Shown here one piece after another: positions 1,527 to 23,612 of a DNA stretch of 32,000 nucleotides. Origin of the DNA: Microcystis aeruginosa NIES-843 (GTDB lineage Bacteria; Cyanobacteriota; Cyanobacteriia; Cyanobacteriales; Microcystaceae); assembly GCF_000010625.1 (NCBI RefSeq), contig NC_010296.1, positions 3,390,001 to 3,422,000 of the forward strand, given 5' to 3'. Positions within the stretch are counted from its first letter, which is position 1. Each line of letters starts with the position of its first letter. Both the position numbers and the translations under genes were made by a program. Below the pieces are notes generated by a model that worked only from the letters and a program-made list of their open reading frames with translations, did not search any database and had not been told where the DNA came from.

Positions 1527-1577
1527 GCCGGTTATCTTATAACTCAAACTGTTTAAATAAAGTGTATAAAAAAACAG

Positions 1578-7374: not shown

Positions 7375-7930
7375 ATTAGTAACTCAACTCTCCAGAGATT
7401 TTTACAACGGTGCTAATAGAAATATGGCATTTCTTTGCCAAATCAGGCCGCCAAAGTCCCAAAAATGGCTCTCTTATTCCTTGTAACATAAGTTTAACTT
7501 ATATAAGAGCGATCAATCTTTGTGTCCTTTGTGTCTTTGTGGTTCTTTCCACTAGCTCGCCAGCAAGACTGTATCTTAGAATACATTTTACCCACCAAAC
7601 CTAAGAGAGCCAAAAAATTACCATATATATTGATACCTAAAGTGTATATCCTACCTACTATAGGTTACGATCAATGTTAACCGAGGAGAAAAAAACAGAA
7701 AAACTAGACTTCTTGAATGGGGTTAGCTGTGGCCGTTTGCCACAAGGTTTAAGACACCTGTAAACAGCTTTTACTAATTTCTTGGCTGGTCGTACAAAAT
7801 TCGGTTAAAGGGGAGCAACGCAAAGCGGGGCAAAATGCAGCAGTTAGGATAGTAAGGAAACCTTGCCACTGACGGCAAAGGCCTATATTTTACCTTGACG
7901 AGAGGTCGGCGCTGGGTAGTTCACCCATTG

Positions 7931-7939
7931 TGTTATAAT
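7931..7939 (+). promoter_or_regulatory. Extended -10 promoter element (TGTTATAAT)
   Basis: TGnTATAAT at 7931..7939, 41 nt upstream of the ATG at 7980. No convincing -35 at 17 nt, which an extended -10 promoter does not need. Confidence 0.45.
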
Positions 7940-7979
7940 TCTGGCCAAGCCATCAAGGGATTTGAAAAGGAGTAACACC

Positions 7980-8249
7980 ATGAGTCTATCTTCAGAAGCC
8001 TATCGCCAAGCCCTCGTGCGGGATGGAGAACGGCGCTATCAGGAATGGCACCAAAATTATCACAACCAATGCCGTCAATCAACGGCTGAATACCAAGCTC
8101 GTTCTGCCCAACAACGCCCAACAAAGCCCTGGATTTCCTCGGAAGCCTACCGCCAACTTTTAGTCAAAGATGGGGAGCGGCGTTTTGCGGAATGGCACGG
8201 CGAGTTTTTAGACTATCAAAGACAATTTCTGGCCAGTCAATCCACTTAA
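7980..8249 (+). CDS. Small hypothetical protein with an internal duplication
   Basis: The ATG at 7980 is preceded by AAGGAG (7967-7972); the ORF track starts at an upstream TTG at 7962. There are two copies of a roughly 24-aa motif: SSEAYRQALVRDGERRYQEWH and SSEAYRQLLVKDGERRFAEWH. Confidence 0.55.
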   Translation: MSLSSEAYRQALVRDGERRYQEWHQNYHNQCRQSTAEYQARSAQQRPTKPWISSEAYRQLLVKDGERRFAEWHGEFLDYQRQFLASQST

Positions 8250-8463
8250 ACGGACGTCAGCCAATCGCCATTACAGCAATCTCTGAAAATAGTGGCTACA
8301 GTCCCCGAAGAAATAGCTGATACCAATTTTCAATAGTCGTGACTAACATCTGAAAGTGCAATTCCTTTCTCCGAGAGGGATTGCGCTTTGAAATGATCAA
8401 CTAAGTCTGTCATTACTTTTGAAAAATGATATAAAGATGAATAAGTCCAGAATGCAAGACCTA

Positions 8464-8924
8464 TCACGAATGCAGCCAAGAATTCAAGATCAGAAGGAAT
8501 AAGAATCCTGTCAACAAATGCTGATGGGCAGTCAGGAGTTTAAGCTTGTGGAGAGACTGTAAGACTGGTTGGGACTCTCTCAAAAAGCAGGTTTCTGTGA
8601 AGCAAGAATTTCCCATCACACATCTTCGCATTGTGATGGCTAGATTGTCAAGTCTGTCCACCCCTGGTCCCCGCAAATAACACCTAAGATAGCGATCATT
8701 AAAACTAAAATTTCAATACATTCGTGCCTTAAGCACCTAAAAGCCTTGCAAAGCAAGGCTTTTACTATTAGTTTATTTGTCCTGTGTCCATCAAAACAGG
8801 CTCCAGCTACCCTTCTGAGTCGATTATAGCTAGTCAAGGGTATCAAGGGTAGTCGAACAATCGCCAAGACTACCTTGGGGTAAGAAACCGTTTGTAAATT
8901 AATGTAAAAAGCTCGCCAAGTCAA
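8464..8924 (-). pseudogene. Decayed ISAs1-family-like transposase N-terminal remnant
   Basis: The reverse strand reads ...CFDGHRTNK...RHECIEILVLMIAILGVICGDQGWTDLTI*. This resembles the ISAs1 N-terminal domain pattern (DPR...H.L.EIL.I...AVICG...W.DI). After a frameshift it reads DGKFLLHRNLLFERVPTSLTV, resembling GK....WL..FL.L.NGIPSHDTF. Several stops and frameshifts are present and no DDE domain is visible. Confidence 0.45.
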
Positions 8925-9249
8925 GGTTTTGGCGATTTATAGAGCAAATGAACTAAAAACTCAGGATCTTTGTCAAGTAAGGACTTTGGCGATTTAAATA
9001 CTTGTTTACAAACAGTTTCTAAGGGTTTGATTATTTTTCTTGGGGGGGTAAGTCCAGTTATCCCCCCAAGGTTCTTGTATTTGTCTTGTTTTTAGGTGCG
9101 CTCGCCCTGCTCTCCCAATGGGAAGTTTTGCTTAGAAAAAAGGGGAGCAGCAACCACCTTGACCCGCCTTTTCTGAGAACTAACTATATTTATTAAGCAC
9201 AAAACTGAGAATTAACTACATTTCTTAACGAAAAAATCGAGATTAGGTA

Positions 9250-9279
9250 TTGACACCGACAAAAAAAGGGTGTTATTCT
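9250..9279 (+). promoter_or_regulatory. Candidate gvpA operon promoter (-35 TTGACA, extended -10 TGTTATTCT)
   Basis: TTGACA at 9250..9255, an 18-nt spacer, TG at 9271-9272 and TATTCT at 9274..9279. It lies about 105 nt upstream of the gvpA1 ATG. Confidence 0.5.
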
Positions 9280-9384
9280 TCAGATGCCGAAGTGATGAAG
9301 GCAGAAAAAACAAACAAGTTTCTGAATCCTCCATGACTTCAGCACCGTACACTTTCTATGAAAACAACAAAAAGGTCTATTACC

Positions 9385-9600
9385 ATGGCAGTCGAAAAAA
9401 CTAACTCTTCCTCTAGCTTGGCTGAAGTTATTGATCGTATCCTTGACAAAGGTATCGTTATTGATGCCTGGGCTCGCGTATCTCTGGTGGGCATCGAATT
9501 ATTAGCGATTGAAGCTCGTGTAGTTATCGCTTCGGTTGAAACCTACCTCAAATATGCTGAAGCCGTTGGTCTGACTCAATCTGCAGCGGTTCCTGCTTAA
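9385..9600 (+). CDS. gvpA: Gas vesicle structural protein GvpA, copy I
   Basis: 71 aa: [71 protein letters not shown], the canonical GvpA sequence. The ORF-track upstream extension from 9358 is unlikely, because copy III starts at this Met. Confidence 0.95.
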
Positions 9601-9954
9601 GGATTGATCTCAGTGAATACCCTGCTGGGGTTTACAAATTCTTAGCTTTTCTTTCATCCCTATTGAGTTTAGTTAACCCTCTCTTGGGGCGCAATAGTCT
9701 ATAACTGATCAAGTTGACACGGCAACGGATAGCGAAAACGAAGCTAGACCCCTACAAATTATTTTTGTAAACGTGATTTTGTCCTTTGTAGCTAGGATTA
9801 CCCCCTATCACCAGAGTGTGAGACTCACTATTTTTCGGAATAGAAAGTCATTTTTGGTGTGGGAGCCGCGCCCCTGAGATGCGGTAGTTCCATATATCAA
9901 TTTTGGGATCAGCACTGTACACTTTCTATACAACTAACAAAAAGGTCTATTACC

Positions 9955-10170
9955 ATGGCAGTCGAAAAAACCAACTCTTCCTCTAGCTTAGCTGAAGTTA
10001 TCGATCGTATCCTTGACAAAGGTATCGTTATTGATGCTTGGGCTCGCGTATCTCTCGTCGGAATCGAATTATTAGCGATTGAAGCTCGTGTAGTTATCGC
10101 TTCTGTTGAAACCTACCTCAAATATGCTGAAGCTGTTGGTCTGACTCAATCTGCAGCAGTTCCTGCTTAA
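9955..10170 (+). CDS. gvpA: Gas vesicle structural protein GvpA, copy II
   Basis: Identical 71-aa product; it differs from copy I only at synonymous positions (e.g. aaaact vs aaaacc). The ORF-track start at 9859 is a spurious extension through the spacer. Confidence 0.95.
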
Positions 10171-10499
10171 GGATTGATCCCAGATTCTCCTATCTGCTGA
10201 GTGAAAACCCGACTGGGTTTTCCAGATCCTCGGATTTTCTTTAAATCCCTATTGAGTCCAGTTACCCCTCTCTTGGGGCGTAGTGCTCTATGATTGACAA
10301 GGTTGGCACGGCAAATGTGTTTTGACCCTTGCAGCTAGGTTTACCCCCTATCACCAGAGTGTGAGACTCACTATTTTTCGGAATAGAAGGTCATTCTTGG
10401 GCTAGGAAGCCGCGCCCCTGAGATGCGGTAGCTCGATATATCAACTTTGGGATCAGCACTGTACACTTTCTATACAACTAACAAACAAGGTCTATTACC

Positions 10500-10715
10500 A
10501 TGGCAGTCGAAAAAACCAACTCTTCCTCTAGCTTAGCTGAAGTTATCGATCGTATCCTTGATAAAGGTATCGTTATTGATGCTTGGGCTCGCGTCTCTCT
10601 CGTCGGAATCGAATTATTAGCGATTGAAGCTCGTGTAGTTATCGCTTCTGTTGAAACCTACCTCAAATATGCTGAAGCAGTTGGTCTGACTCAATCGGCG
10701 GCGGTTCCTGCTTAA
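10500..10715 (+). CDS. gvpA: Gas vesicle structural protein GvpA, copy III
   Basis: Identical 71-aa product. The ORF starts exactly at the conserved Met. Confidence 0.95.
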
Positions 10716-10958
10716 GGATTGATCCCAGATTCTCCTATCTGCTCAGTTAAAACCCGACCAGGTTTTCTAGATTCTCGGCTTTTCTTTAATCCCTATTGAG
10801 TTTAGTTACCCCTCTCTTGGGGCGCAATAGTCTATAATTGATAGGGTAGTTCACTATCTCAACTTTGGGGTGATAAGAAAAGTCGGACTCTACTGTCTCT
10901 CCCCCCAGTCCCCGTGAAGGTTTTCCTAGCGGGTGATTGGGTCTAATCCATTCCATAG

Positions 10959-11621
<663 letters not shown>

Positions 11622-11654
11622 ATCTCTAGGTTAATTACAACCCACTTAAGCCTA

Positions 11655-11686
11655 GGGCTAGAGTAAAAACCCTCTAGTCCCTTTTC
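11655..11686 (+). terminator. Candidate attenuator/terminator hairpin after gvpC
   Basis: GGGCTAGAG-taaaaacc-CTCTAGTCC forms a 9-bp stem including one G-U pair, followed by CTTTTCC. The U-tract is short, so it is at best a partial terminator. Confidence 0.35.
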
Positions 11687-12159
11687 CTGGCTAAACTAGA
11701 GGACTATCTGAAAATACAACAATAAGCCTTTGGTTTTAAACCTAGCTAGTCCTGCCTTTTCAAGTTTCTAGACTCAACGTAGGAGTGGTGGGTTCCTCTT
11801 CAGGCTGCTCTAGGGCTCTGGTAAATTAAGAAGTATTATAAAACTTCACTTAGTTTATAGCTAATGTTGTCATTATTAGTCTTTTATTGACAAAGGAGGT
11901 AAGGGAAAAGGACTGCATCTGGGCTTGTCATTGTTTAAGTCTTGAAAAGTAATCTAGACAAGAATTTTAGACCCTTAGACTAAGGAATATCCTGAAATAC
12001 CTTCAGAATCAAGGTTCTAGATCTAATTGATGACAGTTCCTAATTTTTTGTGATATTATTATGAGGTAAGCCTTAAAAGCCAAAGACGATTAAACTTGCC
12101 GTAAAATTCGGGTAACACAAGCGTCCTTGCCTACTCGGTTATTAAGGGGAAACCTGAAC

Positions 12160-12210
12160 CAGCAGTTGTTAGCTCAAGAATACCCGTACGCTTCAGGCGG
12201 GGATTATCAA
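12160..12210 (+). other. Hairpin + TCAA module upstream of gvpN (paralogue of 14352..14403)
   Basis: CAGCAGT...AAGAAT.C.CGT.CG.TT.A.GGCG.GGG.TAT.TCAA is shared with the module upstream of gvpK, about two-thirds identity by hand alignment. It ends 22 nt before the gvpN ATG. Confidence 0.5.
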
Positions 12211-12232
12211 TGGTATTTACTATATTTCAACT

Positions 12233-13273
12233 ATGACAGTTACTGAAACTCAAACAAGAAGAGCCGTCCTCAGCCTCCGCCCCGGTCAATTTGTTGTTAC
12301 GCCTTCGATTGATCAAATTGCCACCCGCGCCTTACGTTATCTAAACTCTGGTTTTTCCATTCATCTATGTGGCCCAGCAGGAACGGGAAAAACCACCTTG
12401 GCAATGCACTTGGCCAATTGTTTAGCCAGACCTGTGATGCTAATCTTTGGCGATGATGACTTTACCAGTTCCGATTTAATTGGTAGTCAGTCTGGCTACA
12501 CCCATAAAAAACTGATGGATAACTATATCCACAGCGTTCTCAAAGTTGAAGACGAGCTAAAACACAATTGGGTGGATTCTCGCTTAACAATGGCCTGTCG
12601 CGAGGGGTTTACCCTAGTTTATGATGAGTTCAATCGTTCTCGACCTGAGGTCAACAACGTTTTACTCTCTGCCTTGGAAGAAAAAATTCTCACCCTGCCG
12701 CCCACTAGCCATCAACCCGATTACCTACAAGTCAATTCTCAGTTTCGGGCAATTTTCACCTCCAACCCAGAAGAATACTGTGGGGTTCATGCTACCCAAG
12801 ATGCTTTAATGGATCGGTTGGTAACTATCAATATGCCTGAACCGGACCAACTAACTCAGACAGAAATTCTTGCTCAAAAAACGGGGATTGGTCGAGAAGA
12901 TGCTTTATTTATTGTCAACCTCGTCAAAACCTTTCGTGTGAAAACTGCGACTGAAAAAACGTCGGGTTTGCGCTCTTGTTTAATGATTGCTAAAGTCTGC
13001 GCCTCTCACGATATTGCGGCCAACTCCGCTGACTCGGACTTCCGTGATATCTGCGCCGATGTTCTTTTGTCACGCACAAATTTATCTGTTGATAAGTCAA
13101 GAGCGATTTTATGGGAAATCCTCGAGGACAATCCGTTAGAATCCTTATCCTTTCTAGAGGAAGAGGAGCCTTCCGATGCCCAAGTGTCAACTTCTGAGCC
13201 TTCGACAGGAAATCAATCGTTAAAAGCCATTCAATCTTTACTGCGAGGCAACTTGCCCCAGCGAAAAGACTAA
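12233..13273 (+). CDS. gvpN: Gas vesicle AAA+ ATPase GvpN
   Basis: 346 aa. Walker A is [10 protein letters not shown] and Walker B-like is LVYDEFNRS. Its position after gvpC is typical of GvpN. Confidence 0.9.
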
Positions 13274-13290
13274 TTTTATACTCTTATTGA

Positions 13291-13713
13291 GTGAAACTAA
13301 CTGTGACTTCTTCCACTTTTGCTGGCTCGCTCAGAAACCAGTCAAACAACTCCCTAAAAACAGCAACTCAAGGTTCGAGTTTAGCGGATATACTCGAACG
13401 AGTTTTAGATAAAGGAATTGTGATTGCCGGCGATATTTCCGTTTCGATCGCCTCCACTGAACTTATAAATATCCGCATTCGTTTGTTAATTGCCTCTGTT
13501 GATAAAGCCAGGGAAATGGGGATCAACTGGTGGGAAGGAGACCCCTACCTCCATAGCCAATCCCAAGCTTTACTAGCAGAAAATCGGGAACTTTCGCTCC
13601 GACTCCAAACCCTGGAAACTGAGCTTGAAACCCTAAAATCCTTAACCCAATTGAGTGCAATGGAGAGCCATGATACCAGTCCGAACGATGAAGCACATTC
13701 CTCAGATGCGTGA
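13291..13713 (+). CDS. gvpJ: Gas vesicle protein GvpJ (GvpA-like core plus C-terminal tail)
   Basis: The core is SSLADILERVLDKGIVIAGDISVSIASTELINIRIRLLIASVDKAREMGINWW (GvpA/J/M family). The start is uncertain: GTG at 13291 or GTG at 13303. Confidence 0.88.
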   Translation: MKLTVTSSTFAGSLRNQSNNSLKTATQGSSLADILERVLDKGIVIAGDISVSIASTELINIRIRLLIASVDKAREMGINWWEGDPYLHSQSQALLAENRELSLRLQTLETELETLKSLTQLSAMESHDTSPNDEAHSSDA

Positions 13714-13981
13714 AATTCCTCACTTGAATCCTCAAAGGTTAGGAAATTTACACGAGTTGACGGTTGCCCCTCTTGATAAAGCAAGGGAAATGGCAATTGA
13801 TGGGTGTCAAGGTTATCCCCACCTCCCTAGCCAATGCCAAGCTTTATTAACAGAAAACCTGGAACTTTCACGCCGACTTCAAGCCTTAAAATCCTTAGCC
13901 AAATTGAGTGCAATGGAGAGCCGTGATACCAGTCCGAACGAGCAGGCACATTCCTTATATACATTGAAATTCCTCAATTGA
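13655..13981 (+). CDS. gvpX: GvpX-like ORF, derived from a duplicated gvpJ 3' half
   Basis: The ORF overlaps the gvpJ 3' end. Possible starts are GTG 13655, ATG 13670 (GGAGAG upstream) and ATG 13706 (ATGcgTGA overlap with the gvpJ stop). From APLDKAREMAIDG... it parallels the GvpJ tail ASVDKAREMGINW... in the homologous frame. Confidence 0.6.
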   Translation: MQWRAMIPVRTMKHIPQMREIPHLNPQRLGNLHELTVAPLDKAREMAIDGCQGYPHLPSQCQALLTENLELSRRLQALKSLAKLSAMESRDTSPNEQAHSLYTLKFLN

Positions 13982-14006
13982 ATCCTCAAACGGTAAAGAA
14001 GTTTAC

Positions 14007-14403
14007 CGAAAAATTGGGTTGAAAGCCTCGCCCTTTTAGGGCGACTTTATGTGGTGTATGATATTAAGAATAGGGGGCCGGGTAAGCAACCGCTTAAAAA
14101 ACCCAGTCATCAACCGATGAACGCACCTTGAAAACTAAAGTTATGGGGTTCTCTAGGGGAATGCTCCTATAGGTAAAAGCTCTCAGCGTCAAGTACCAGA
14201 GAAACCAATTATTTTAGAGGTTTTGAACTGTATCGTAGGGGCCCCCGAAAACAGGCTTCTGTAAGGTCGCGAAAGTCTGAGGAGAGAACCACCTCTGGGT
14301 GGGATTTCGCTAGGAATCTAATTCAAGTGGACTCGTTGAGCCAGAAATTCTCAGCAGTGATGCGAGAAGAATCCACGTCCGTTTACGGCGTGGGGTATGT
14401 CAA
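14007..14403 (+). mobile_element. Candidate non-autonomous IS200/IS605-type element (PATE-like) in the gvpX-gvpK spacer
   Basis: TTAC (14003-14006) is followed 21 nt later by hairpin TCGCCC-tttta-GGGCGA (14028..14044). Near the other end is a related hairpin CCACG(T)CCG-ttta-CGGCGTGG (14373..14393) with a bulged T, followed by 10 nt ending in TCAA (14400..14403). The region is non-coding. The geometry matches what I recall for IS608-type ends. Confidence 0.35.
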
Positions 14404-14491
14404 ATCATTATTTTCCCTCAGATAAAATTTCTTGGCCAAGCTCCCCACTAGAGACTCACCGTCAAAAACTGCTCATTTACCAATTCCCACC

Positions 14492-14965
14492 ATGACACTT
14501 GCTTGCACACCTTACGATTCTGATAATCAAGCCTTGCTGACCCGTCCAGAAAGTAATAGCCAAGCTGGTTTAGCCCCTTTACTGTTAACTGTCGTGGAAC
14601 TGGTACGCCAATTGCTCGAAGCCCAAATCATTCGCCGGATGGAAAAAGGGGTTCTCAGTGAGTCTGATTTAGATAGAGCCGCAGAAAGTATCCAAAAATT
14701 GCAAGAACAAATTCTCTATTTGTGTGAAATTTTTGAGGTTGAGCCAGAAGAGTTAAATGTCCACTTAGGAGAGTTTGGAACTCTTTTACCGGAAGCAGGG
14801 AGTTATTACCCGGGAGAGGAGGGTATTAAGCCTTCTGTGTTAGAATTAGTGGATCGACTCCTCAATACAGGGGTTGTTGTGGAAGGAAATGTTGATCTGG
14901 GTTTAGCTCAACTAGATTTAATTCATCTAAAGCTTCGTTTGGTTTTAACTTCTCAGCCGGTTTAA
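14492..14965 (+). CDS. gvpK: Gas vesicle protein GvpK
   Basis: LAPLLLTVVELVRQLLEAQIIRRMEKG...LNTGVVVEGNVDLGLAQLDLIHLKLRLVLTS is the GvpK signature. I prefer the ATG at 14492 (157 aa) over the ORF-track TTG at 14432. Confidence 0.88.
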   Translation: MTLACTPYDSDNQALLTRPESNSQAGLAPLLLTVVELVRQLLEAQIIRRMEKGVLSESDLDRAAESIQKLQEQILYLCEIFEVEPEELNVHLGEFGTLLPEAGSYYPGEEGIKPSVLELVDRLLNTGVVVEGNVDLGLAQLDLIHLKLRLVLTSQPV

Positions 14966-14980
14966 TTTGGGAGAATACTG

Positions 14981-15715
14981 ATGACAGTGGGTCTTTATTT
15001 ATATGGAATATTTCCCGAACCAGTTCCTGACGGACTCGTTTTGCAAGGGATTGATAATGAGCCAGTTCACAGTGAGATGATTGAGGGTTTTAGTTTTCTC
15101 TACTCCGCTGCTCATAAAGAGAAGTATTTGGCATCCCGTCGCTATTTAATTTGCCATGAAAAAGTATTAGAAACTGTCATGGAAGCAGGGTTTACAACGT
15201 TGTTGCCCCTGCGGTTTGGCTTAGTTATCAAAACCTGGGAATCCGTCACCGAACAATTAATTAGTCCCTATAAAACCCAACTGAAAGAATTATTTGCTAA
15301 ACTGTCAGGCCAACGAGAGGTTAGCATTAAGATTTTTTGGGATAATCAGTGGGAATTACAAGCGGCTTTGGAGTCTAATCCTAAGTTAAAGCAAGAACGG
15401 GATGCGATGATGGGGAAAAACTTAAATATGGAAGAAATTATCCATATAGGTCAACTCATTGAAGCCACTGTATTGCAACGGAAACAAGACATTATTCAAG
15501 TCTTTAGAGACCAATTAAATCATCGCGCCCAAGAGGTGATTGAAAGCGATCCGATGACGGATGACATGATTTACAATGCAGCTTATTTAATTCCCTGGGA
15601 GCAAGAGCCGGAATTTAGCCAAAACGTTGAAGCGATCGATCAGCAGTTTGGTGATCGCCTAAGAATTCGCTATAACAATTTAACCGCACCCTATACCTTT
15701 GCCCAACTTGTCTAA
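14981..15715 (+). CDS. gvpF: Gas vesicle protein GvpF (GvpF/L family)
   Basis: 244 aa. The N-terminus LYLYGIFPEP...LLPLRFG and the C-terminal NLTAPYTFAQL are typical of GvpF/L. GGGAGA lies upstream of the ATG. Confidence 0.88.
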   Translation: MTVGLYLYGIFPEPVPDGLVLQGIDNEPVHSEMIEGFSFLYSAAHKEKYLASRRYLICHEKVLETVMEAGFTTLLPLRFGLVIKTWESVTEQLISPYKTQLKELFAKLSGQREVSIKIFWDNQWELQAALESNPKLKQERDAMMGKNLNMEEIIHIGQLIEATVLQRKQDIIQVFRDQLNHRAQEVIESDPMTDDMIYNAAYLIPWEQEPEFSQNVEAIDQQFGDRLRIRYNNLTAPYTFAQLV

Positions 15716-15729
15716 GGAGAGTATTAGTT

Positions 15730-15990
15730 ATGTTTCTCGATCTTTTATTTCTTCCTGTTACCGGTCCTATTGGGGGTCTGATCTGGATTGGGGAGAAAAT
15801 TCAAGAGCGTGCAGATATAGAATATGATGAGGCGGAAAATTTGCACAAATTGTTATTATCCTTACAACTATCTTACGATATGGGCAACATTTCTGAGGAG
15901 GAGTTTGAAATTCAGGAAGAAGAACTTTTATTAAAAATTCAAGCCTTAGAAGAAGAAGAGGCAGAAAACGAATCTGAATCTTCTCTCTAA
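15730..15990 (+). CDS. gvpG: Gas vesicle protein GvpG
   Basis: 86 aa. MFLDLLFLPVTGPIGGLIWIGEKIQE...ISEEEFEIQEEELLLKI is the GvpG pattern. AAGGAG lies upstream. Confidence 0.88.
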   Translation: MFLDLLFLPVTGPIGGLIWIGEKIQERADIEYDEAENLHKLLLSLQLSYDMGNISEEEFEIQEEELLLKIQALEEEEAENESESSL

Positions 15991-16113
15991 ACTTGCAATC
16001 TTTCCCACCACATAGATCATGAACAAAATCACAAATTGTAAGCTTAGTAAGGGCGGATTTGACAAGCTCAAGAACTCGTTGAAGCTTGGTCAGAACTAGC
16101 CCTTGGTTAAGCC

Positions 16114-16446
16114 TTAATATTCTAGGTAAAAAGTTTGGAAATTACTGGAATTATTAGAGGAGTGAGCAACAGTTTTGGGGGAATCAGGTTTTTTAGCTAC
16201 ACTAGGAGGGTTGGCTGTACGCAAATTTTGAATACTTTGTTCTGTAGTCTCAATTTGCTCTGTCACAAACGTGAGACGATTTTTTAATTGCTGAATCTGC
16301 CGCTCCATCATTTCTAATTTTTCTTGGATACGTTGTTTTTCAGTAATTAACTTATAAAGCTCAAGTTGGTGATCTGCTTCAGATTGTTTCCGAGGCATGG
16401 TGCTAATTTTAGATCTAATTGGTCTGGGTGGACGAGTGGTTGTCAT
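16114..16446 (-). CDS. gvpV: Small coiled-coil protein, GvpV-like by position
   Basis: 110 aa, and the only ORF between gvpG and gvpW. It has a central heptad-rich segment LELYKLITEKQRIQEKLEMMERQIQQLKNRL. The assignment rests on position and size relative to the recalled Microcystis gvp map. Confidence 0.6.
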   Translation of the reverse strand: MTTTRPPRPIRSKISTMPRKQSEADHQLELYKLITEKQRIQEKLEMMERQIQQLKNRLTFVTEQIETTEQSIQNLRTANPPSVAKKPDSPKTVAHSSNNSSNFQTFYLEY

Positions 16447-16464
16447 AACAATCCCTGAATAACT

Positions 16465-16476
16465 TAGAATATTCTA
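16465..16476. promoter_or_regulatory. Perfect 12-bp palindrome TAGAATATTCTA in the divergent gvpV-gvpW spacer
   Basis: Read directly from the sequence. It is centred in the 92-bp region between the divergent start codons at 16446 and 16539, making it a candidate operator. Confidence 0.35.
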
Positions 16477-16538
16477 GCATATCAACGCCCCAATATAAAA
16501 ACTTGTAAAAAATCGTCAATTTTCTTTTGGTCAACCCT

Positions 16539-17222
16539 ATGAAATTGTACAATCTATATACTTACGCTTTTTTGAAAACCCCCATAGAAAGCCTAAAATT
16601 ACCCGTTGGAATGGCTAACCCATTGTTACTGATAACTGGTGGAGAGCTATCGGCCGTAGTCGAACCCGAAGTTGGTTTAGACACTTTACAAAATGATGAT
16701 GAACGCTTGATTCAATCCGTTTTATGTCATGATCGAGTCATCTGTCAATTATTTCAACAAACCACTATTTTACCCTTACGTTTTGGCACATCTTTTTTAG
16801 AGGCAGAAAATTTACTGACTCATCTTTGTTCTCATGGCCAAGAATATCAAGAAAAAATTGAAGAACTTGAGGGAAAAGGAGAATATCTTTTAAAATGTAT
16901 TCCCCGTAAGCCAGAGGAGCCTGTACTCTTTTCTGAAAGCAAGGGCAGACAATATTTTTTAGCCAAAAAACAGCTTTATGAAGCCCAACAAGATTTTTAT
17001 ACTTTGCAAGGTTCGGAATGGCAAAATCTCGTGAATTTAATCACCCAAAGCTATCCATCAACGAGGATTATTACTGCTCCGGGGACAGAATCACGAATTT
17101 ATCTTTTAGTTAATCTTCAAGAAGAACCTTTACTAATCGAGCAAGTCTTGCATTGGCAGAAAGCCTGCCCCCGTTGGGAATTACAATTAGGACAAGTTTC
17201 TCCCCCCTATCACTTTACTTAA
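16539..17222 (+). CDS. gvpW: Gas vesicle protein GvpW (GvpF/L-related)
   Basis: MKLYNLYTYAFL...LSAVVEPEV...HDRVICQLFQQTTILPLRFGTSF is a GvpF/L-type N-domain. I prefer the ATG at 16539 over the ORF-track TTG at 16527. Confidence 0.8.
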   Translation: MKLYNLYTYAFLKTPIESLKLPVGMANPLLLITGGELSAVVEPEVGLDTLQNDDERLIQSVLCHDRVICQLFQQTTILPLRFGTSFLEAENLLTHLCSHGQEYQEKIEELEGKGEYLLKCIPRKPEEPVLFSESKGRQYFLAKKQLYEAQQDFYTLQGSEWQNLVNLITQSYPSTRIITAPGTESRIYLLVNLQEEPLLIEQVLHWQKACPRWELQLGQVSPPYHFT

Positions 17223-17234
17223 CTTGATTTCTCT

Positions 17235-19136
17235 ATGACTAACTTTAACTTGGTAAATAACTCTCTAAGTCGTTATGACACTCGACATTTAGTTATGTTT
17301 AGTGGCAAAGGAGGAGTGGGAAAAACCACCCTTTCCTGTGGATTTGCTCGCCGTTGGGCTAAATTATTTCCCGAGGAACAAATCCTGTTAATCTCAACCG
17401 ATCCTGCTCATTCTTTAGGGGATGTATTGCAAACAGAAGTTAGCGATCAAGCATCACCTGTAAAAGACTTACCCAACTTAAAAGTTAGGGCATTAGATGC
17501 GGAAAAATTGCTCTTAGAATTTAAAGAAAAATACGGAAAATTTTTAGAACTTTTAGTAGAACGGGGCAGTTTTGTTGAAGGAGAAGATTTAACTCCTGTT
17601 TGGGATTTAGACTGGCCAGGTTTAGATGAAATTATGGGTCTATTAGAAATTCAACGATTACTTATTGACAATGTTGTAGATCGAATTGTTGTTGATATGG
17701 CTCCCTCTGGTCATACCTTGAATTTATTGGGAATTAAAGACTTTTTAGAGATTATTTTAAATTCTTTAGAGTTGTTTCAAGAAAAACATCGTGTTATTTC
17801 GCAAACTTTTTCAAAAACCTACAATGCCGATGATGTGGATGACTTTTTAGTCAAAACACAAGCAGAATTAACCGAAGGCAAACGAATCCTACAAGATCGG
17901 GATTTTACCCTTTGTTTAATTGTGGCAATTGCCGAACCGATGAGTTTATTAGAAACCGAACGATTACTCAATAGTTTGCATCACTTAAATATTCCCTGCG
18001 GCAGCTTATTTATTAATCGAATTCTAACGGATCCTAATCAAAATTTAGATCGCTATAGTGAGCAACAGCAACTCCTGGATAAATTCCTAAAAATTCCAGG
18101 TCAAGAGACAATTTTCACCCTGCCCCAACAATCAAAAGAACCCCTAGGAGGTGAGGCATTAGATCAGATCATGAGTCAAATTAAAATCATCGAAAAAGTA
18201 GAATTTACTCCCCCGCCTCCTATTCAATGGCCGCAAAAAATTCTGCCGAGTTTTAGTGATTTTATTGACGACAAACGCCAACTCATTATCATTGGTGGCA
18301 AGGGTGGGGTGGGAAAAACCACCGTTGCCGCGGCCATTGGTTGGGCGTTAGCTAATCGTCATCCCGATCAAAAAATTAGAATTATTTCTATTGATCCAGC
18401 GCATTCTTTGGGAGATGCCTTTGGGACAAAGTTAGGACATCAATCCACACAATTAACTGATAATTTAAGTGGTCAAGAAGTTGACGCTAATATCATTTTA
18501 GAAAAATTTCGGGATGATTATTTATGGGAACTGGCAGAAATGATTAGTGGTGAAGGTAAGGAAGAAGGAAACATCAAACTAGCTTATACTCCGGAAGCTT
18601 GGCGACAAATTGTAGCTCAATCTCTGCCAGGAATTGATGAAATGTTATCCCTAGTAACAGTGATGGATTTATTAGACCAGAAACAACAAGATTTGATTAT
18701 TTTAGATACGGCTCCTACCGGTCATCTCCTGCGATTTTTGGAAATGCCAACGGCTTTAGGAGATTGGTTAAGTTGGATTTTTAAGCTTTGGATGAAGTAT
18801 CAAAATGTCTTAGGGCGTGTAGATTTAATGGGACGGTTGCGAATCTTAAGACAACAGGTGATGTCTGCCCAGAAAAAACTAAAAGACCCCCAACATACAG
18901 AATTTATTGGAGTTTTGCAAGCCCAAGATGCTATAGTTGCCGAACAACTGCGATTGACAGCATCTTTGAAAAAAATGGGAGTCTATCAACGTTATGTCGT
19001 GCAGAATCGTTATCACGCTAATGAGGAAATTGATTGGGATTTATTCCCAGATCAAACTTTGATTCGCTTACCCAGTTTACCCCGGTCAGTAGAACCTCTA
19101 GCCCGGGTAAAAAGCGCGGCAGATCTGTTATTTTAA
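17235..19136 (+). CDS. Tandem two-domain ArsA/Get3 (TRC40)-family ATPase with no ars context
   Basis: 633 aa with two homologous halves. The N half has FSGKGGVGKTT, STDPAHSLGD and VDMAPSGHTLNLL. The C half has IGGKGGVGKTT, SIDPAHSLGD and LDTAPTGHLLRFL. It starts 12 nt after the gvpW stop on the same strand. The C half contains no cysteine. Confidence 0.85.
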   Translation: MTNFNLVNNSLSRYDTRHLVMFSGKGGVGKTTLSCGFARRWAKLFPEEQILLISTDPAHSLGDVLQTEVSDQASPVKDLPNLKVRALDAEKLLLEFKEKYGKFLELLVERGSFVEGEDLTPVWDLDWPGLDEIMGLLEIQRLLIDNVVDRIVVDMAPSGHTLNLLGIKDFLEIILNSLELFQEKHRVISQTFSKTYNADDVDDFLVKTQAELTEGKRILQDRDFTLCLIVAIAEPMSLLETERLLNSLHHLNIPCGSLFINRILTDPNQNLDRYSEQQQLLDKFLKIPGQETIFTLPQQSKEPLGGEALDQIMSQIKIIEKVEFTPPPPIQWPQKILPSFSDFIDDKRQLIIIGGKGGVGKTTVAAAIGWALANRHPDQKIRIISIDPAHSLGDAFGTKLGHQSTQLTDNLSGQEVDANIILEKFRDDYLWELAEMISGEGKEEGNIKLAYTPEAWRQIVAQSLPGIDEMLSLVTVMDLLDQKQQDLIILDTAPTGHLLRFLEMPTALGDWLSWIFKLWMKYQNVLGRVDLMGRLRILRQQVMSAQKKLKDPQHTEFIGVLQAQDAIVAEQLRLTASLKKMGVYQRYVVQNRYHANEEIDWDLFPDQTLIRLPSLPRSVEPLARVKSAADLLF

Positions 19137-19192
19137 AGGTAATTAGTCTGCTCAAGTCGGACTTCTTCACCCCATCTATCACCCAGTCCCCA

Positions 19193-19314
19193 CGGCAATT
19201 CTCATTTTGAAACGATTTTGCGTTGTTTCAGCGATCTAGAGACTCGTTAAGAATTATTAACCCCTCTAGGTGCAAGGGTTTTAATGTCATGAAACCTTAA
19301 AATGAGAATTGCTG
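19193..19314. mobile_element. MITE family C (122 bp, 16-bp TIR, 9-bp TSD)
   Basis: The TIRs are CGGCAATTCTCATTTT (19193..19208) and AAAATGAGAATTGCTG (19299..19314), matching at 15 of 16 positions. The direct repeat CAGTCCCCA flanks both ends (19184..19192 and 19315..19323). Confidence 0.8.
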
Positions 19315-19350
19315 CAGTCCCCATCTTTCACTTGACTCAGGAGAAATTTT

Positions 19351-21195
19351 ATGGCAGAATTATTCAAAGGCTTCGAGCAATTATTCGAACTGGCTAAAAT
19401 CTTGGAAGAGAAACTGGAAAAAGGGGAAATTAAAACCGAAATGCAATTTAATTCCCGTCCCTTGAGTAATATTCCCCGTTCTGGCGGTATTCCCCGTTCA
19501 GGGGCAGTTTCTCGTCCGAGCAATTCTGGCGGGGATGATTTTGAGGTCAATCGCAATCGGTCATCTCCCACTGATTCAGGGGTTGAAGACACTGTGACAC
19601 CGCCCGAAGGACCGACCACGGCTTCCCTTAAAGATGTTGGTGGATTGACGGAAGTGATTAAAGAACTCAAAGAACTAATTGCCATTCCTCTGAAACGCCC
19701 TGACTTGTTGGCCAAGTTAGGACTGGAACCCACTCGCGGCGTTCTCTTAGTCGGACCCCCTGGAACCGGTAAAACCCTGACCGCCCGTGCTTTGGCCGAA
19801 GAACTCGGTGTTAACTATATTGCCTTAGTCGGACCAGAGGTGATTAGCAAATATTATGGGGAAGCCGAGCAAAAACTGCGGGGAATTTTTGAGAAAGCCA
19901 GTAAGAATGCGCCTTGTATCGTTTTTATTGACGAAATTGATAGCATGGCACCCGACCGCAGTAAAGTTGAAGGGGAAGTAGAAAAAAGACTGGTAGCCCA
20001 ATTGCTGGGTTTAATGGATGGCTTTGCCCAAAGCCAAGGGGTGATTGTTCTAGCGGCGACAAACCGTCCCGACCATCTTGACCCTGCCCTCCGTCGTCCC
20101 GGACGGTTTGACCGAGAAGTCCTCTTTCGGGTGCCTGACCGCAAGGGTCGTTTAGAAATCCTCCAAATTCTCACCCGTTCCATGCCCCTAGATGAATCAG
20201 TTTCCTTAGATCTGATTGCCGATAATGCGGTGGGATTTGTCGGGTCAGATTTAAAAGCCGTTTGCCAGAAAGCGGCCTATAGTGCTTTGCGGCGCCAGGT
20301 TCCTACGATTGACTCGCGAATTCCAGAAACAATGACGGTAGTCCAAGCCGACTTTTTGCAAGCCCTTAAAGAAGTTAAACCGGCGGTATTGCGGTCTGTG
20401 GAAGTGGAGTCTCCCCATGTGGACTGGGACAATATTGGCGGACTTGAACAGATTAAACAAACCCTACAGGAGTCCGTGGAAGGGGCATTACTCCATCCGC
20501 AATTATATACGCAAACTAAAGCCCAAGCTCCCAAAGGTATTTTACTTTGGGGTCCCCCCGGAACGGGAAAAACCTTATTGGCCAAAGCGGTGGCATCTCA
20601 GGCGCGAGCTAATTTTATCAGTATTAATGGACCTGAGCTTTTGAGTAAATGGGTGGGGGCCAGTGAACAGGCAGTGCGTGAGTTGTTTGCCAAAGCTCGT
20701 CAGGCAGCCCCTTGTGTGGTTTTTATTGATGAAATTGATACTTTAGCACCGGCAAGAGGTCGTTATAGTGGAGATTCAGGAGTGAGTGACCGGGTTGTGG
20801 GACAAATCCTCACGGAGTTAGATGGGTTGCAAACGGCGGCAACGATTTTAGTGATTGGAGCCACTAATCGCCCAGATGCTTTAGATCCAGCCTTATTGCG
20901 AGCGGGACGGTTAGATTTACAGTTAAAAGTTGATTTACCCAATGCCTCCAGTCGTTTAGCAATTCTGGGGGTTCATAATGATGAACGTCCTTTAGAGGAT
21001 GTGGATTTAGGCTATTGGGCCGAGGCAACCGAAGGCTGGAATGGCGCAGATTTAGCGTTATTATGTAACCAAGCGGCACTGATGGCAATTCGTCGTTATC
21101 GCCATCAGGGAATGACTGACCCGGCTGAGATTCGCATTACAACGGCTGATTTTAATCATGCTTACCAACTGTTGGTTGAACAGCGTGCCAATTGA
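19351..21195 (+). CDS. Double-AAA+ ATPase, Cdc48/p97-like (D1+D2) with a low-complexity N-terminus
   Basis: 614 aa. Walker A GPPGTGKT occurs twice and Walker B FIDEID twice. Pore-loop-like motifs are KYYGEAE and KWVGASE. SRH-like motifs are ATNRPDHLDPALRRPGRFD and ATNRPDALDPALLRAGRLD. The first ~100 aa are Ser/Pro/Gly-rich (IPRSGGIPRSGA) rather than a Cdc48 N-domain. AGGAG lies upstream of the ATG. Confidence 0.88.
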   Translation: MAELFKGFEQLFELAKILEEKLEKGEIKTEMQFNSRPLSNIPRSGGIPRSGAVSRPSNSGGDDFEVNRNRSSPTDSGVEDTVTPPEGPTTASLKDVGGLTEVIKELKELIAIPLKRPDLLAKLGLEPTRGVLLVGPPGTGKTLTARALAEELGVNYIALVGPEVISKYYGEAEQKLRGIFEKASKNAPCIVFIDEIDSMAPDRSKVEGEVEKRLVAQLLGLMDGFAQSQGVIVLAATNRPDHLDPALRRPGRFDREVLFRVPDRKGRLEILQILTRSMPLDESVSLDLIADNAVGFVGSDLKAVCQKAAYSALRRQVPTIDSRIPETMTVVQADFLQALKEVKPAVLRSVEVESPHVDWDNIGGLEQIKQTLQESVEGALLHPQLYTQTKAQAPKGILLWGPPGTGKTLLAKAVASQARANFISINGPELLSKWVGASEQAVRELFAKARQAAPCVVFIDEIDTLAPARGRYSGDSGVSDRVVGQILTELDGLQTAATILVIGATNRPDALDPALLRAGRLDLQLKVDLPNASSRLAILGVHNDERPLEDVDLGYWAEATEGWNGADLALLCNQAALMAIRRYRHQGMTDPAEIRITTADFNHAYQLLVEQRAN

Positions 21196-21317
21196 TTTTT
21201 TTTCCCCCTTGCTTTAGTAGGGGGGAGAATCTCAATTCAGGAAAACCATCGTAAAAAGGAAAATTTTCAAAAATGTCTGCAATCATGGGTCTAATACTAA
21301 ATCCGGTTATTAAAAAC

Positions 21318-21503
21318 GGTTCTTCGGTTTGTCTTATGCAACGGACAGGGTTACAAGGAATGAAACTCTTATATAGAAAGACATTCGGGGATTTATGTCA
21401 ATTGTTTTCGATCTAGAGCGAACTAATCAATTAAGTCTCTTGCCAGATAAGGATTTAGTCGATTTATGCCCCCCTATTGAACCATACCAAGTAACGAAGA
21501 ACC
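21318..21503. mobile_element. MITE family B, copy 2 (186 bp, 8-bp TSD TTAAAAAC)
   Basis: The ends are GGTTCTTCGG... and ...CAAGTAACGAAGAACC. TTAAAAAC lies immediately on both sides (21310..21317 and 21504..21511). Confidence 0.85.
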
Positions 21504-21674
21504 TTAAAAACTGATTATTTATTTCCCCTTTTGCATGAGTGCCTATCCTGATATGTAGCCTATACTCAACGGATTTAGTATAACTTTGTCTTGATAATTT
21601 ACAAAACGATTGGAACCTGAAGAAGAAAAATTATTACGGGGTTTAACTGACAGTGTTTCTCAAAAAACTGATGT

Positions 21675-23282
21675 TTACTTTTCCTGTTGTCTTCTTGTTG
21701 CTAATTGGTCTAAAATTTCGGCGTGAACTTGGCGAGTAATTGGATAAAAATAGGCAAGAATTAAGCTAATGATCAGAAAAAATGCTGGTAAAGGGGCAAT
21801 TGCTAGGCGAATTGCTATTAAAGCACTATCTGGCTGCAGGGGAATTGCTTCTCCTGGGATTCTCGGTTTAAAACCCGATGTTTCTAGAGCAATACCGACA
21901 AGAAATAACCCCAAAGCTAGACCAATTTTTTGCAAAAGTACCATGAAAGCATAAAAAATACCTTCTCGACGTTTTCCTGTTTCTAATTCGTCTAATTCAA
22001 TCACATCGGGAACCATTGACCAAGGAATTAAATAGGCCACAGATACGCCAAATCCCGCCAAAACTGCCAAAGCATACATTAAAGTTATTTCTCCTGGTTG
22101 GAGCAAAAATAAACCAATTTGGGCAATAATCCAGAATGTCATCCCTAAAAAATAGACTATCTTTTTGTCTAATTTCTGACTAACTGCTTGCCAGAAAAAT
22201 AACATCACTAAAGCTGTTCCCTGTACTGCCAAAGCGACTAAACCCGATTCTGCTTCCGATAGTCTCATGTAGCTGACGACGTAGTAAACCAAAATCGAGG
22301 CGGTTAATTGTACTCCTAACCAAGCACAAAGATAGATGCCAATAACGTATAAAAAGGGACGATTACCAAAAACTATTTTTAATTGTTCTTTCAGGGGAAT
22401 AGTTTCGGTATTATTATCCGCTTCTCTCTGTTTAATTGCTGCGCTATCCTTGAGATGATTTTCAGTTTTGCCATAGTAAAGGGTTAACCCCGAAACTATC
22501 CCTTGTATTCCTAATAAAATTGTGGAAATAGCGATAAAGTCTCTGGGATTCACCCCAATTTTTCCTAGTCCATAGACCAAGGAAAGCGCACCGATAACTA
22601 TAAAAGCAATTGCCAAAACTTTTTTCTGGGGAGAATTGAGAATCGCTTTTGCTCCTCGTTCTTGTAAAGCTAAAGCGCACCAAATAACTGCTATAATCGA
22701 CATTAAAGCACAAACTACACCTAACAATAAAAAAGCTTGATGGAGATCGTTGGCATAGGACGATGAGACGATAATATAGAGAATTAATGAGAGAATGCTG
22801 CCCCCGATGGAAAAGGCAAAACGAAAACTATTTAAGCGGGTTCTCTCATTATAATCATAAGTTAATTCAGGGGTGAGTGCCTGGTAAGGAAGATTGACTA
22901 CTGTATAGGTTAAATTAAAGATAATGCCGATAAAAATATAATATAAAAATAGCCATAATTGGTTATTAGTCGGGATTAACCACAGTAAAAAATAGCTAAT
23001 TCCGAAGGGAATCGACCCCAATAACATCCATGGTAAGCGACGACCCCAGATAGTACGAGTTCGATCGCTCCACATGCCAATAATCGGATCGTTAATAGCG
23101 TCGAAAATTCTCACCACCATCAGCACACTACCAGCTAATCCTGCCGATAATCCTGCCACATCAGTGAGGAAAAATAGCAGGTAAAATACCGAGATATTGG
23201 CAGTGATAGCCGGTCCCAAATCCCCCGCACCATAGGCGATTTTTGTGGTTAAATTGAGTCTTTCAGAAGTCAAATGAGCCAT
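21675..23282 (-). CDS. MFS transporter, glycoside-pentoside-hexuronide (GPH):cation symporter-like
   Basis: 535 aa with about 12 or more hydrophobic helices. The N-terminal motif MWSDRTRTIWGRRLPWML resembles the GPH/MelB-family signature. Confidence 0.7.
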   Translation of the reverse strand: MAHLTSERLNLTTKIAYGAGDLGPAITANISVFYLLFFLTDVAGLSAGLAGSVLMVVRIFDAINDPIIGMWSDRTRTIWGRRLPWMLLGSIPFGISYFLLWLIPTNNQLWLFLYYIFIGIIFNLTYTVVNLPYQALTPELTYDYNERTRLNSFRFAFSIGGSILSLILYIIVSSSYANDLHQAFLLLGVVCALMSIIAVIWCALALQERGAKAILNSPQKKVLAIAFIVIGALSLVYGLGKIGVNPRDFIAISTILLGIQGIVSGLTLYYGKTENHLKDSAAIKQREADNNTETIPLKEQLKIVFGNRPFLYVIGIYLCAWLGVQLTASILVYYVVSYMRLSEAESGLVALAVQGTALVMLFFWQAVSQKLDKKIVYFLGMTFWIIAQIGLFLLQPGEITLMYALAVLAGFGVSVAYLIPWSMVPDVIELDELETGKRREGIFYAFMVLLQKIGLALGLFLVGIALETSGFKPRIPGEAIPLQPDSALIAIRLAIAPLPAFFLIISLILAYFYPITRQVHAEILDQLATRRQQEK

Positions 23283-23378
23283 AAAAGCAATTATAGAGAC
23301 TAAAATAAGCTTAACTGTTCTGGGAGCAGTTGAGGAACTTTAATTTTTTTTGTCTCTAGTAATTCCTGAAAATATCTA

Positions 23379-23612
<234 letters not shown>

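Follow-up and report, generated by a model that had tools for sequence, protein, structure and literature searches.

The DNA analysed here is a window of 32,000 nucleotides (nt) from the genome of Microcystis aeruginosa NIES-843 (contig NC_010296.1, positions 3,390,001 to 3,422,000 of the forward strand; all coordinates below count from the first letter of the window). It carries a cluster of gas-vesicle (gvp) genes, and directly beyond gvpW, the last named gene of that cluster, two genes on the same strand encode ATPases: an ArsA-like protein with two halves of the Get3/ArsA fold and a AAA+ protein with two Cdc48-type modules. A sequence-only reading of the window had placed these open reading frames (ORFs) 12 nt beyond gvpW and 214 nt beyond each other, and its coordinates and both distances were confirmed. 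The features that define the arrangement are as follows.

16527..17222 (ATG at 16539), + strand: gvpW (GvpL/GvpF family), the last named gvp gene; Pfam PF06386, 1.2e-25
17223..17234, + strand: spacer of 12 nt from the gvpW stop codon to the ArsA-like ATG, read from the sequence; similarly short across genera
17235..19136, + strand: ORF of the ArsA-like ATPase, 633 amino acids (aa), two PF02374 halves (Pfam)
19340..19343, + strand: GGAG ribosome-binding motif, 7 nt 5' of the AAA+ ATG, read from the sequence and kept in the Microcystis alignment
19351..21195, + strand: ORF of the AAA+ protein, 614 aa, two PF00004 domains (Pfam)

No terminator-like site was found on the + strand of the spacer between gvpW and the ArsA-like gene. 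A gap this short and free of such a site fits co-transcription; promoter and terminator consensus scans of positions 9000-23500 stayed at chance level, returning no more sites than shuffled sequence. The short gaps suggest that gvpW and the ArsA-like gene are co-transcribed. Among the main ORFs scanned in the 32-kb window there was no Pfam match to ArsB, ACR3, ArsC, ArsR or ArsD, in line with the earlier statement that the ArsA-like gene has no arsenic-resistance genes for company.

Conservation of the neighbourhood across cyanobacteria

A profile of the ArsA-like clade was scanned on one genome per species. A relative was found in 362 species, and the best 80 loci, all of them cyanobacterial, were examined; the proteins of the window were mapped onto these loci to count neighbours. 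The ArsA-like gene is directly preceded by gvpW on the same strand at 62 of the 80 loci, with a median gap of 11 nt, and is directly followed by the AAA+ gene at 68 of the 77 informative loci, with a median gap of 83 nt; the remaining nine have enough flank and no AAA+ gene. In 72 of the 80 loci gvp genes are neighbours. Such a survey had been proposed by the sequence-only reading, and it found the pair beside gvpW in gvp-positive cyanobacteria of many genera. Both neighbours, gvpW and the AAA+ gene, are present at 46 of the 68 loci outside Microcystis, in Planktothrix, Limnoraphis, Aerosakkonema, Nostoc, Dolichospermum, Aphanizomenon, Anabaenopsis, Calothrix, Sphaerospermopsis, Stigonema, Scytonema and Richelia. 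In a PCC 7120-type genome, gene calls made independently show an identical arrangement, in which the gaps measure 37 and 42 nt and a convergent NACHT gene comes next; we take the PCC 7120 locus tags of the pair to be all2243/all2244.

Laspinema, Oscillatoria and Phormidium have their gvp genes in a rearranged order, among which gvpW was not found, and retain the pair all the same. Measured against the window, the AAA+ proteins outside Microcystis average 78% identity and the ArsA-like proteins 71%, compared with 44%-71% for the Gvp accessory proteins; of the Gvp proteins, only GvpA is more conserved than the two ATPases. Among the top 120 AAA+ relatives listed, all named genera show gvp clusters where loci were fetched.

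Identity is distributed unevenly among lineages. Between the Microcystis block (9358-21195) and Planktothrix/Limnoraphis (L013, L014, L015, L024) it reaches 85-92% for the ArsA-like protein, 90-92% for the AAA+ protein, 79-86% for GvpF and 73-85% for GvpW, whereas the two ATPases are 65-78% identical to those of other cyanobacteria. Because the identity to Planktothrix/Limnoraphis is so far above that to other cyanobacteria, these comparisons suggest that the whole block from gvpA to the AAA+ gene has been exchanged between bloom-forming lineages. Two matches carry a label from another phylum. A contig labelled "Actinomycetota bacterium" (L041, JBLNEP010000040.1) holds a 72%-identical ArsA-like gene of cyanobacterial type and a gvpV-like ORF, and an AAA+ match (P0171) is labelled in the same way; both are probably mis-binned cyanobacterial contigs.

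In filamentous cyanobacteria, Laminin_G_3 (concanavalin-like) proteins recur inside gvp clusters (L037 6900-9902; L025 7342-8172 and 8342-9100; L027 15068-17458; L019 141-2411), with the same layouts in L032, L035, L036, L040, L042, L029 and L030; the Microcystis window has none. One of these proteins, 1000 aa long with four repeats, is encoded between gvpN and the ArsA-like gene.

The ArsA-like protein

The ArsA-like protein is a tandem Get3/ArsA-fold ATPase in which both P-loops (GKGGVGKTT, twice) and the switch-II signatures DMAPSGHT and DTAPTGH are intact, and in 40 orthologues these elements are invariant. DMAPSGHT and PVWDL[NDS]WP serve as motifs of the tandem ArsA clade. It passes the model of the TRC40/GET3/ArsA subfamily, TIGR00345, with 342 bits (cut-off 135), and fails the equivalog of the arsenical pump, TIGR04291, with 191 bits (cut-off 650). 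Its only cysteines are C35, C227 and C255, all in the N-terminal half. The metalloid site of E. coli ArsA is built of C113, C172 and C422, from both halves, and because the C-terminal half of the ArsA-like protein has no cysteine such a three-cysteine site is impossible, as had been pointed out from the sequence. The protein is a member of the Get3/ArsA subfamily. It is not an arsenic-pump ATPase, because its equivalog score, its cysteines and its gene context, which is not an ars operon, all depart from what defines ArsA.

The best match to a Protein Data Bank (PDB) sequence is Chlamydomonas ARSA1 (5ZME) at 1.6e-46; Get3 proteins come next (about 1e-33), ahead of E. coli ArsA (2e-30). An AlphaFold2 model of the protein is a closed pseudo-dimer (mean local confidence score, pLDDT, 80.5; predicted template-modelling score, pTM, 0.81). 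When normalised to the Get3 chain, the TM-scores for superposing each half on Get3 are 0.76-0.83; among known folds, the model superposes best on closed ArsA (TM 0.68-0.75). With Get3/TRC40 and ARSA1 (2WOJ, 4XTR, 5ZME) the protein has both the fold and the TIGR00345 subfamily in common; ARSA1 is a fused two-domain chaperone of tail-anchored proteins, and the ArsA-like protein is likewise fused, which replaces the Get3 dimer. It differs from them in being only 24-28% identical, in having no known membrane receptor partner (no Get1/2-like candidate was found in the gvp cluster) and in its sequence lacking the CXXC motif that forms the zinc bridge of the Get3 homodimer. The contexts differ too, since the ArsA-like gene belongs with a protein-shelled organelle and Get3 with a membrane. 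The tandem A1-A2 arrangement and a DTAPTGH-type signature are shared with the E. coli R773 ArsA (1F48) and the L. ferriphilum ArsA (9NBW).

At the extreme C-terminus, residues 612-633 (19068-19133) follow the pattern LP.LPRS.....R...A..LLF, which is almost invariant in the 40 orthologues. The segment is a candidate docking tail.

The AAA+ protein

The AAA+ protein falls into three parts.

19351..19449, + strand: conserved N-terminal helix, about residues 1-33, LFKGFEQL.EL.K.LEEK...GEIK, at the place of the Cdc48 N domain; near-invariant residues, helix 2-23 in the model
19450..19620, + strand: variable linker, about residues 34-90, beginning with the conserved SRP.S.IPR.G.IPR; from the alignment, predicted disordered
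19621..21195, + strand: D1 and D2 AAA+ modules of Cdc48/VAT type, both predicted active, with aromatic pore loops; from Pfam, a PDB match and invariant residues

In 36 orthologues the catalytic residues of both modules are invariant: the Walker A lysines (K141, K407), the Walker B pairs (D194/E195, D460/E461), the sensor-1 asparagines (N238, N506) and the arginine fingers. The same holds for the pore-loop motifs KYYGEAE (D1) and KWVGASE (D2), which bears out the earlier observation that both pore loops are intact. The best PDB match is Thermoplasma VAT without its N domain (580 bits, residues 92-582), and p97 and Cdc48 also align; D1 and D2 align end to end with VAT/Cdc48/p97 (5VC7, 5G4F), and the D1 pore loop bears a tyrosine, as in archaeal VAT. 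Cdc48 and VAT thread and unfold proteins out of assemblies.

The description of this protein as Cdc48-like in the sequence-only reading holds for the D1/D2 engine and not for the N-terminal region. It scores 670 bits against the CDC48 family model TIGR01243, whose cut-off is 802.65, and covers only profile positions 176-676; it falls short because the N domain is missing, there being no Pfam match in the protein to the double-psi barrel and beta-clam of that domain (PF02359, PF02933). When the first 60 residues of 18 orthologues were compared with Pfam, none of them matched a family, even with the threshold relaxed to E = 10, and in the predicted model residues 27-99 have a pLDDT below 50. The N-terminal helix and disordered linker were found only in the gvp-linked cyanobacterial orthologues. 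Judged by its sequence, the protein is best described as an N-domain-less AAA+ ATPase of Cdc48/VAT type with a lineage-specific N-terminal helix. At the other end, the C-terminus (...EQRAN) has no hydrophobic-Tyr-X tail; such a tail serves proteasome docking.

The cluster already contains one AAA+ gene, gvpN. Vesicle elongation requires GvpN, which is presumed to act on GvpA and lacks the pore-loop signature of an unfoldase; the AAA+ protein described here is a separate, second AAA+ of the cluster, and neither ATPase of the pair is GvpN.

Some cyanobacteria have a further Cdc48-like D1-D2 paralogue, 64-69% identical to the AAA+ protein of the window and encoded directly after a Laminin_G_3 gene (L027 17585-19393, L029, L030, L019 2418-4091). 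This paralogue lacks the conserved N-terminal helix. In L019 it adjoins gvpA and is the only such AAA+ in the cluster, so that this gvp cluster, too, still holds a Cdc48-like AAA+.

Counterparts in other phyla

A search of 1.84 billion representative proteins revealed a large two-domain ArsA-like family at 30-38% identity, some members of which were used to sample metagenome contigs. The pattern used for the metagenome scan is a generic P-loop, so the loci are a sample and not a census, and fractions taken from them are indicative. Among the 80 metagenome loci recovered, at least 12 have gvp genes around the ArsA-like gene, and in at least five of these 12 there is in addition a D1-D2 AAA+ gene whose product shares 45-51% identity with that of the window. 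The recurring order is an Hsp20/GvpH-like gene, ArsA (often single-domain, 311-325 aa), a full-length CDC48 and GvpF/L paralogues. A short contig of 2.8 kb (L099) shows Hsp20-ArsA-CDC48 with no gvp gene on it, and its AAA+ falls within the same range of identity.

Relatives of the CDC48 from one of these loci, about 80% identical to it, are numerous in Nitrospirota, Bacteroidota and further metagenome-assembled genomes. Six of these relatives were sampled (L163-L168), and each of the six belongs to a gvp cluster arranged as gvpA ... gvpN ... Hsp20, ArsA, CDC48, a fusion of GvpL/F to a DnaJ J domain, GvpF, GvpG ... GvpK; in four of the six the ArsA and CDC48 genes overlap by 1-4 nt. The Hsp20-ArsA-CDC48 set (L163-L168, L083-L111) thus has the same two ATPase families, adjacent and on the same strand, inside gvp clusters. 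It differs from the cyanobacterial pair in that ArsA is usually single-domain (311-340 aa), CDC48 keeps its N domain (the CDC48_N and CDC48_2 families are both present), a separate Hsp20/GvpH-like gene accompanies them and the genes overlap. Between the window proteins and these bacterial homologues, identity is 48% for the AAA+ protein and about 32% for ArsA.

The GvpL/F::J-domain fusion stands directly after CDC48 (for example L163 12191-13306 and L164 14994-16034), and some of the six clusters also encode small DnaJ-type zinc-finger proteins and "Volactin" (PF25216). The fusion and the DnaJ-type proteins point to recruitment of Hsp70 and to a large chaperone set.

For the N-terminal region of the cyanobacterial AAA+ protein, a profile-profile comparison alone gave a signal, and a moderate one: its helix is similar to that at the start of the Hsp20-like proteins, GLFKGIEKLVDLAADLKEAGGEIK (hhalign E 8.7e-5, probability 60%, 54% identity over 24 columns). 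In some clusters (L083, L085) the Hsp20-like gene lies immediately before the CDC48 gene, and because of this a single deletion could yield the cyanobacterial protein. At most, this suggests that the cyanobacterial architecture may have come from one deletion that fused an Hsp20-like N-terminus to a CDC48 without its N domain.

Upstream genes, mobile elements and the end of the block

The remaining features of the locus lie upstream of gvpW, in the spacer between the two ATPase genes, and downstream of the pair.

9358..16446, + strand (gvpV on the - strand): gas-vesicle genes accompanying the pair, namely gvpA (three copies), gvpC, gvpN, gvpJ, gvpX-like, gvpK, gvpF, gvpG and gvpV; order the same in L001-L080
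12233..13273, + strand: gvpN, PF07728, a single-module AAA+ of MoxR/dynein type
19184..19323, no strand assigned: miniature inverted-repeat transposable element (MITE) 1 in the spacer between the two ATPase genes, body of 122 nt at 19193-19314, terminal inverted repeat GCAATTCTCATTTT; from an inverted-repeat search
21200..21229, + strand: 13-bp stem-loop directly 3' of the AAA+ stop codon, fold z-score -2.0, at the end of the sequence common to Microcystis strains
21310..21511, no strand assigned: MITE 2, body 21318-21503, terminal inverted repeats GGTTCTTCG/CGAAGAACC, 8-bp duplication TTAAAAAC; absent from the otherwise collinear L003
21675..23282, - strand: symporter gene of the MFS_2/GPH family, convergent and outside the unit; from a domain search

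The three gvpA copies (9358-10715) have identical products of 71 aa. Two of the gvpA ORFs, called mechanically, run further upstream to give 80 and 103 aa; this is probably an effect of the calling and not a sign of real N-terminal extensions. GvpK (14432-14965; also L081 5996-6463) carries a GvpA-like "Gas_vesicle" domain at its extreme C-terminus, residues 135-173; a chaperone of Get3 type would find an obvious candidate client in this tail-like hydrophobic hairpin.

MITE 1 is flanked by a 9-bp target-site duplication, CAGTCCCCA, at 19184-19192 and 19315-19323, and its body plus one copy of the duplication amounts to 131 nt. The site is filled in the window, L001 and L007 and empty in L002, L006 and L010, where the gap between the two ATPase genes is about 83 nt; the original estimate that the element accounts for 131 of the 214 nt, and that the ancestral gap was about 83 nt, agrees with these empty sites. 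In L004 the same spacer is about 500 nt long, reflecting a different insertion at the same place.

Downstream, the second MITE and the convergent transporter gene had also been recognised from the sequence, and the comparison with L003 and the domain match uphold both. The symporter gene follows the pair in just one other Microcystis locus, L003. With the exception of L003, the sequence common to Microcystis ends about 90 nt past the AAA+ stop codon, at the 13-bp hairpin, and the PCC 7120-type genome has its convergent NACHT gene at the corresponding point, which supports an end of the unit immediately beyond the AAA+ gene. Both flanks of the block (21196-21290 and 6000-9300) differ between Microcystis strains when compared with L001-L012.

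Two genes further upstream were also considered. A hybrid histidine kinase gene near the cluster (window 420-1547) has a counterpart in PCC 7120-type genomes, only 27% identical, and was set aside as a coincidence. A 445-aa ORF at 6037-7374 on the - strand has only HHH_6 and OB-fold domains, as does the alpha subunit of DNA polymerase III towards its C-terminus; dnaE may be split here, with this ORF as its C-terminal half.

Discussion

The association of ArsA homologues with gas vesicles is prior art, as is the loss of the metalloid cysteines. Castillo & Saier 2010 (PMC2963123) described a clade of ArsA homologues of about 637 aa ("Cluster 4") that includes Mae1, 633 aa, of Microcystis aeruginosa PCC 7806 and proteins of PCC 7120, Nodularia, Arthrospira and Trichodesmium; the ArsA-like protein of the window belongs to the same family. 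They independently reported members of the clade inside gvp operons in four phyla, with arsR absent and hsp20 present in some, noted that the three metalloid cysteines are replaced by W, S/T and an aliphatic residue, and proposed that the ArsA homologue "energizes a biogenic step" of the vesicles, alongside GvpN. The same paper makes no mention of a Cdc48-type neighbour, and it regards ArsA homologues as energisers of transport and not as chaperones of Get3 type. The statement in the sequence-only reading that neither gene is counted among the described gvp genes therefore calls for correction as regards the ArsA-like gene; for the Cdc48-type gene no paper linking it to gvp clusters was found, in a search that covered few subscription journals and is hence no proof of absence.

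Neither an experimental follow-up of the published ArsA-gvp link nor a mutant of the pair was found in the searchable literature, and searches for Get3, Cdc48, AAA+ or arsenite ATPase together with gas vesicles returned nothing beyond Castillo & Saier 2010. The transcriptome and proteome papers that were found deal with the named gvp genes only, the supplements of Hurt et al. mention neither ATPase gene, and gas-vesicle papers let the cyanobacterial cluster end at gvpW (PMC7204071). Within the searchable literature, four points appear to be unreported: that a Cdc48-type gene is the constant partner, that the cyanobacterial block has the pair as its conserved end, that other phyla carry an Hsp20-ArsA-CDC48-J-domain set, and that the cyanobacterial AAA+ protein may have originated by fusion.

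We regard a functional tie between the ATPase pair and gas vesicles as highly probable. As to its nature, the reading that we favour, with a probability of roughly 0.55, draws on the analogy with Get3 and Cdc48: the two proteins would be conserved accessory members of the gvp cluster and would make up a proteostasis module, driven by ATP, that looks after the very hydrophobic GvpA/GvpJ-type wall proteins. Hydrophobic segments are shielded by Get3 in a groove that depends on ATP, and the hydrophobic hairpin of GvpA forms the gas-facing surface of the vesicle. The Get3-like protein would shield this hairpin in new or extracted GvpA-type subunits, as Get3 does a transmembrane helix, while the unfoldase would pull apart misassembled, aggregated or collapsed wall protein for reuse or degradation, its N-terminal helix perhaps recruiting the client or an adaptor. 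Such a module would raise the yield or quality of vesicles in the native cell, and assembly as such would have no need of it. That GvpA needs chaperoning has been argued by Iburg et al. 2024, who tentatively give the role to GvpF, GvpG and GvpN (PMC11445434). We consider the pair accessory and not a core assembly factor because gas vesicles form without either gene in HEK293T cells, where A. flos-aquae gvpA and gvpNJKFGWV suffice (Hurt et al., PMC10344784).

That sufficiency also weighs against the proteostasis reading, and so do several of our own results. In L034 (Oscillatoriales USR001) and L079 (a metagenome-assembled genome), neither gvp genes nor an AAA+ gene occur within 10 kb of an intact ArsA-like orthologue; on shorter flanks, L038 (Kamptonema UHCC 0994) and L048 present the same picture. 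These stand-alone orthologues are 68-72% identical to the ArsA-like protein and have unrelated neighbours (the gene lies at about 10001-11870 where the flanks are full), which hints at a role that is not strictly tied to vesicles. Conversely, L021 and L025 combine gvp genes with an ArsA-like gene, and their AAA+ gene is missing from the surrounding 10 kb. The AAA+ protein is so distant from the gvp-linked CDC48 of other bacteria, at only 48% identity, that common descent of the linkage is unproven, and in this strain MITE 1 may uncouple transcription of the AAA+ gene. The helical subdomains form the client groove in Get3 and the metalloid site in ArsA; they are present in the model of the ArsA-like protein yet are its least confident parts (residues 113-126, 158-164 and 444-463), and the fold search, with matches 20-28% identical, confirmed the fold and did not separate Get3 from ArsA.

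The stand-alone orthologues would also be expected if the two were genes of general function, in tail-anchored protein insertion, arsenic tolerance or protein quality control, that hitch-hike with a mobile gvp block, and the Nodularia genome paper places the gene after gvpW (nsp15480) among the arsenic-resistance genes (PMC3610870). However, a chance neighbourhood is highly improbable given that the adjacency outlasts rearrangements, spans cyanobacterial orders and recurs in other phyla with different gene orders, that ars genes nearby and metalloid-binding cysteines are both lacking, and that gvp clusters were present where loci were fetched from the named genera of the listed top-120 AAA+ relatives. 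Of all the explanations considered, we give least credence to a role in positioning, in which the ArsA-like protein, of the SIMIBI class like ParA, MinD and McdA, would space or segregate vesicles and the AAA+ protein would serve some other purpose. There is weak similarity to the ParA, MinD and CbiA P-loop families, but the ParA/MinD models score 45-53 bits against 342 for the Get3/ArsA subfamily, and the constant partners are of chaperone type (Hsp20, CDC48, J domain). ParA-type proteins, moreover, switch by ATP-driven dimerisation, a switch that a fused pseudo-dimer does not have.

Two other explanations accept the link with gas vesicles and place the pair at a different step; both seem to us unlikely. 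The unfoldase might actively dismantle intact vesicles, stripping GvpC or extracting GvpA to cut buoyancy when hormogonia revert or cells sink, with the Get3-like protein capturing the released material. The gene linkage is identical under this explanation and under the proteostasis reading, a VAT-like unfoldase with aromatic pore loops in both rings would be suited to the task, and the pair is dispensable for assembly (PMC10344784). Yet in other phyla the pair lies amid assembly genes, translationally coupled and beside Hsp20 and a J-domain GvpL/F, as would befit a folding and assembly set, and the co-transcription with gvpW that the short gaps suggest would have the cell make vesicles and their destroyer simultaneously. 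Alternatively, the pair could energise assembly directly, acting with GvpN at the growing seam of the vesicle in a core function that growth at native rate or to native size would require and that heterologous systems bypass inefficiently. This would extend the proposal of Castillo & Saier (PMC2963123) and could account for the experience of Hurt et al., in which, of 15 gvp clusters cloned, 10 did not work in E. coli and vesicle production was weakest from that of A. flos-aquae, so that the authors suspected a possible need for genes outside the annotated operons (PMC10344784). It is hard to reconcile with the vesicles of normal properties that arise in human cells without the pair (PMC10344784), and the B. 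megaterium-type and Serratia-type clusters, as described in PMC11445434 and PMC10344784, list no such genes.

Within the proteostasis reading a broader proposal can be made, which we offer tentatively and rate below the module itself. Gas vesicles may own a "GET plus Cdc48" cycle, with Hsp20 and J-domain partners, as an ancient organelle-specific chaperone system whose cyanobacterial AAA+ protein arose by fusion of an Hsp20/GvpH-like N-terminal helix to an N-domain-less CDC48. In such a cycle the Get3-type ATPase would deliver hydrophobic wall subunits to a monolayer of protein exposed to gas and not to lipid, and the Cdc48-type ATPase would extract misplaced or collapsed ones.

How the aggregation-prone GvpA stays soluble, enters the growing shell and leaves it after collapse is an open question in gas-vesicle biology, and the Get3-type and Cdc48-type pair, with Hsp20 and the J-domain fusion in other phyla, supplies concrete chaperone candidates. 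Acoustic reporter genes rest on gas vesicles, so that the failure of 10 of 15 clusters in E. coli (PMC10344784) gives these candidates practical weight: if the "GET plus Cdc48" cycle were true, supplying the module would rescue or boost heterologous gas-vesicle expression. For these genes, the routine annotation as arsenic resistance, "FtsH" or "cell division" is corrected. If the proposal is right, the Get3 fold and a Cdc48-type unfoldase would here be at work for an organelle that is not bounded by a membrane.

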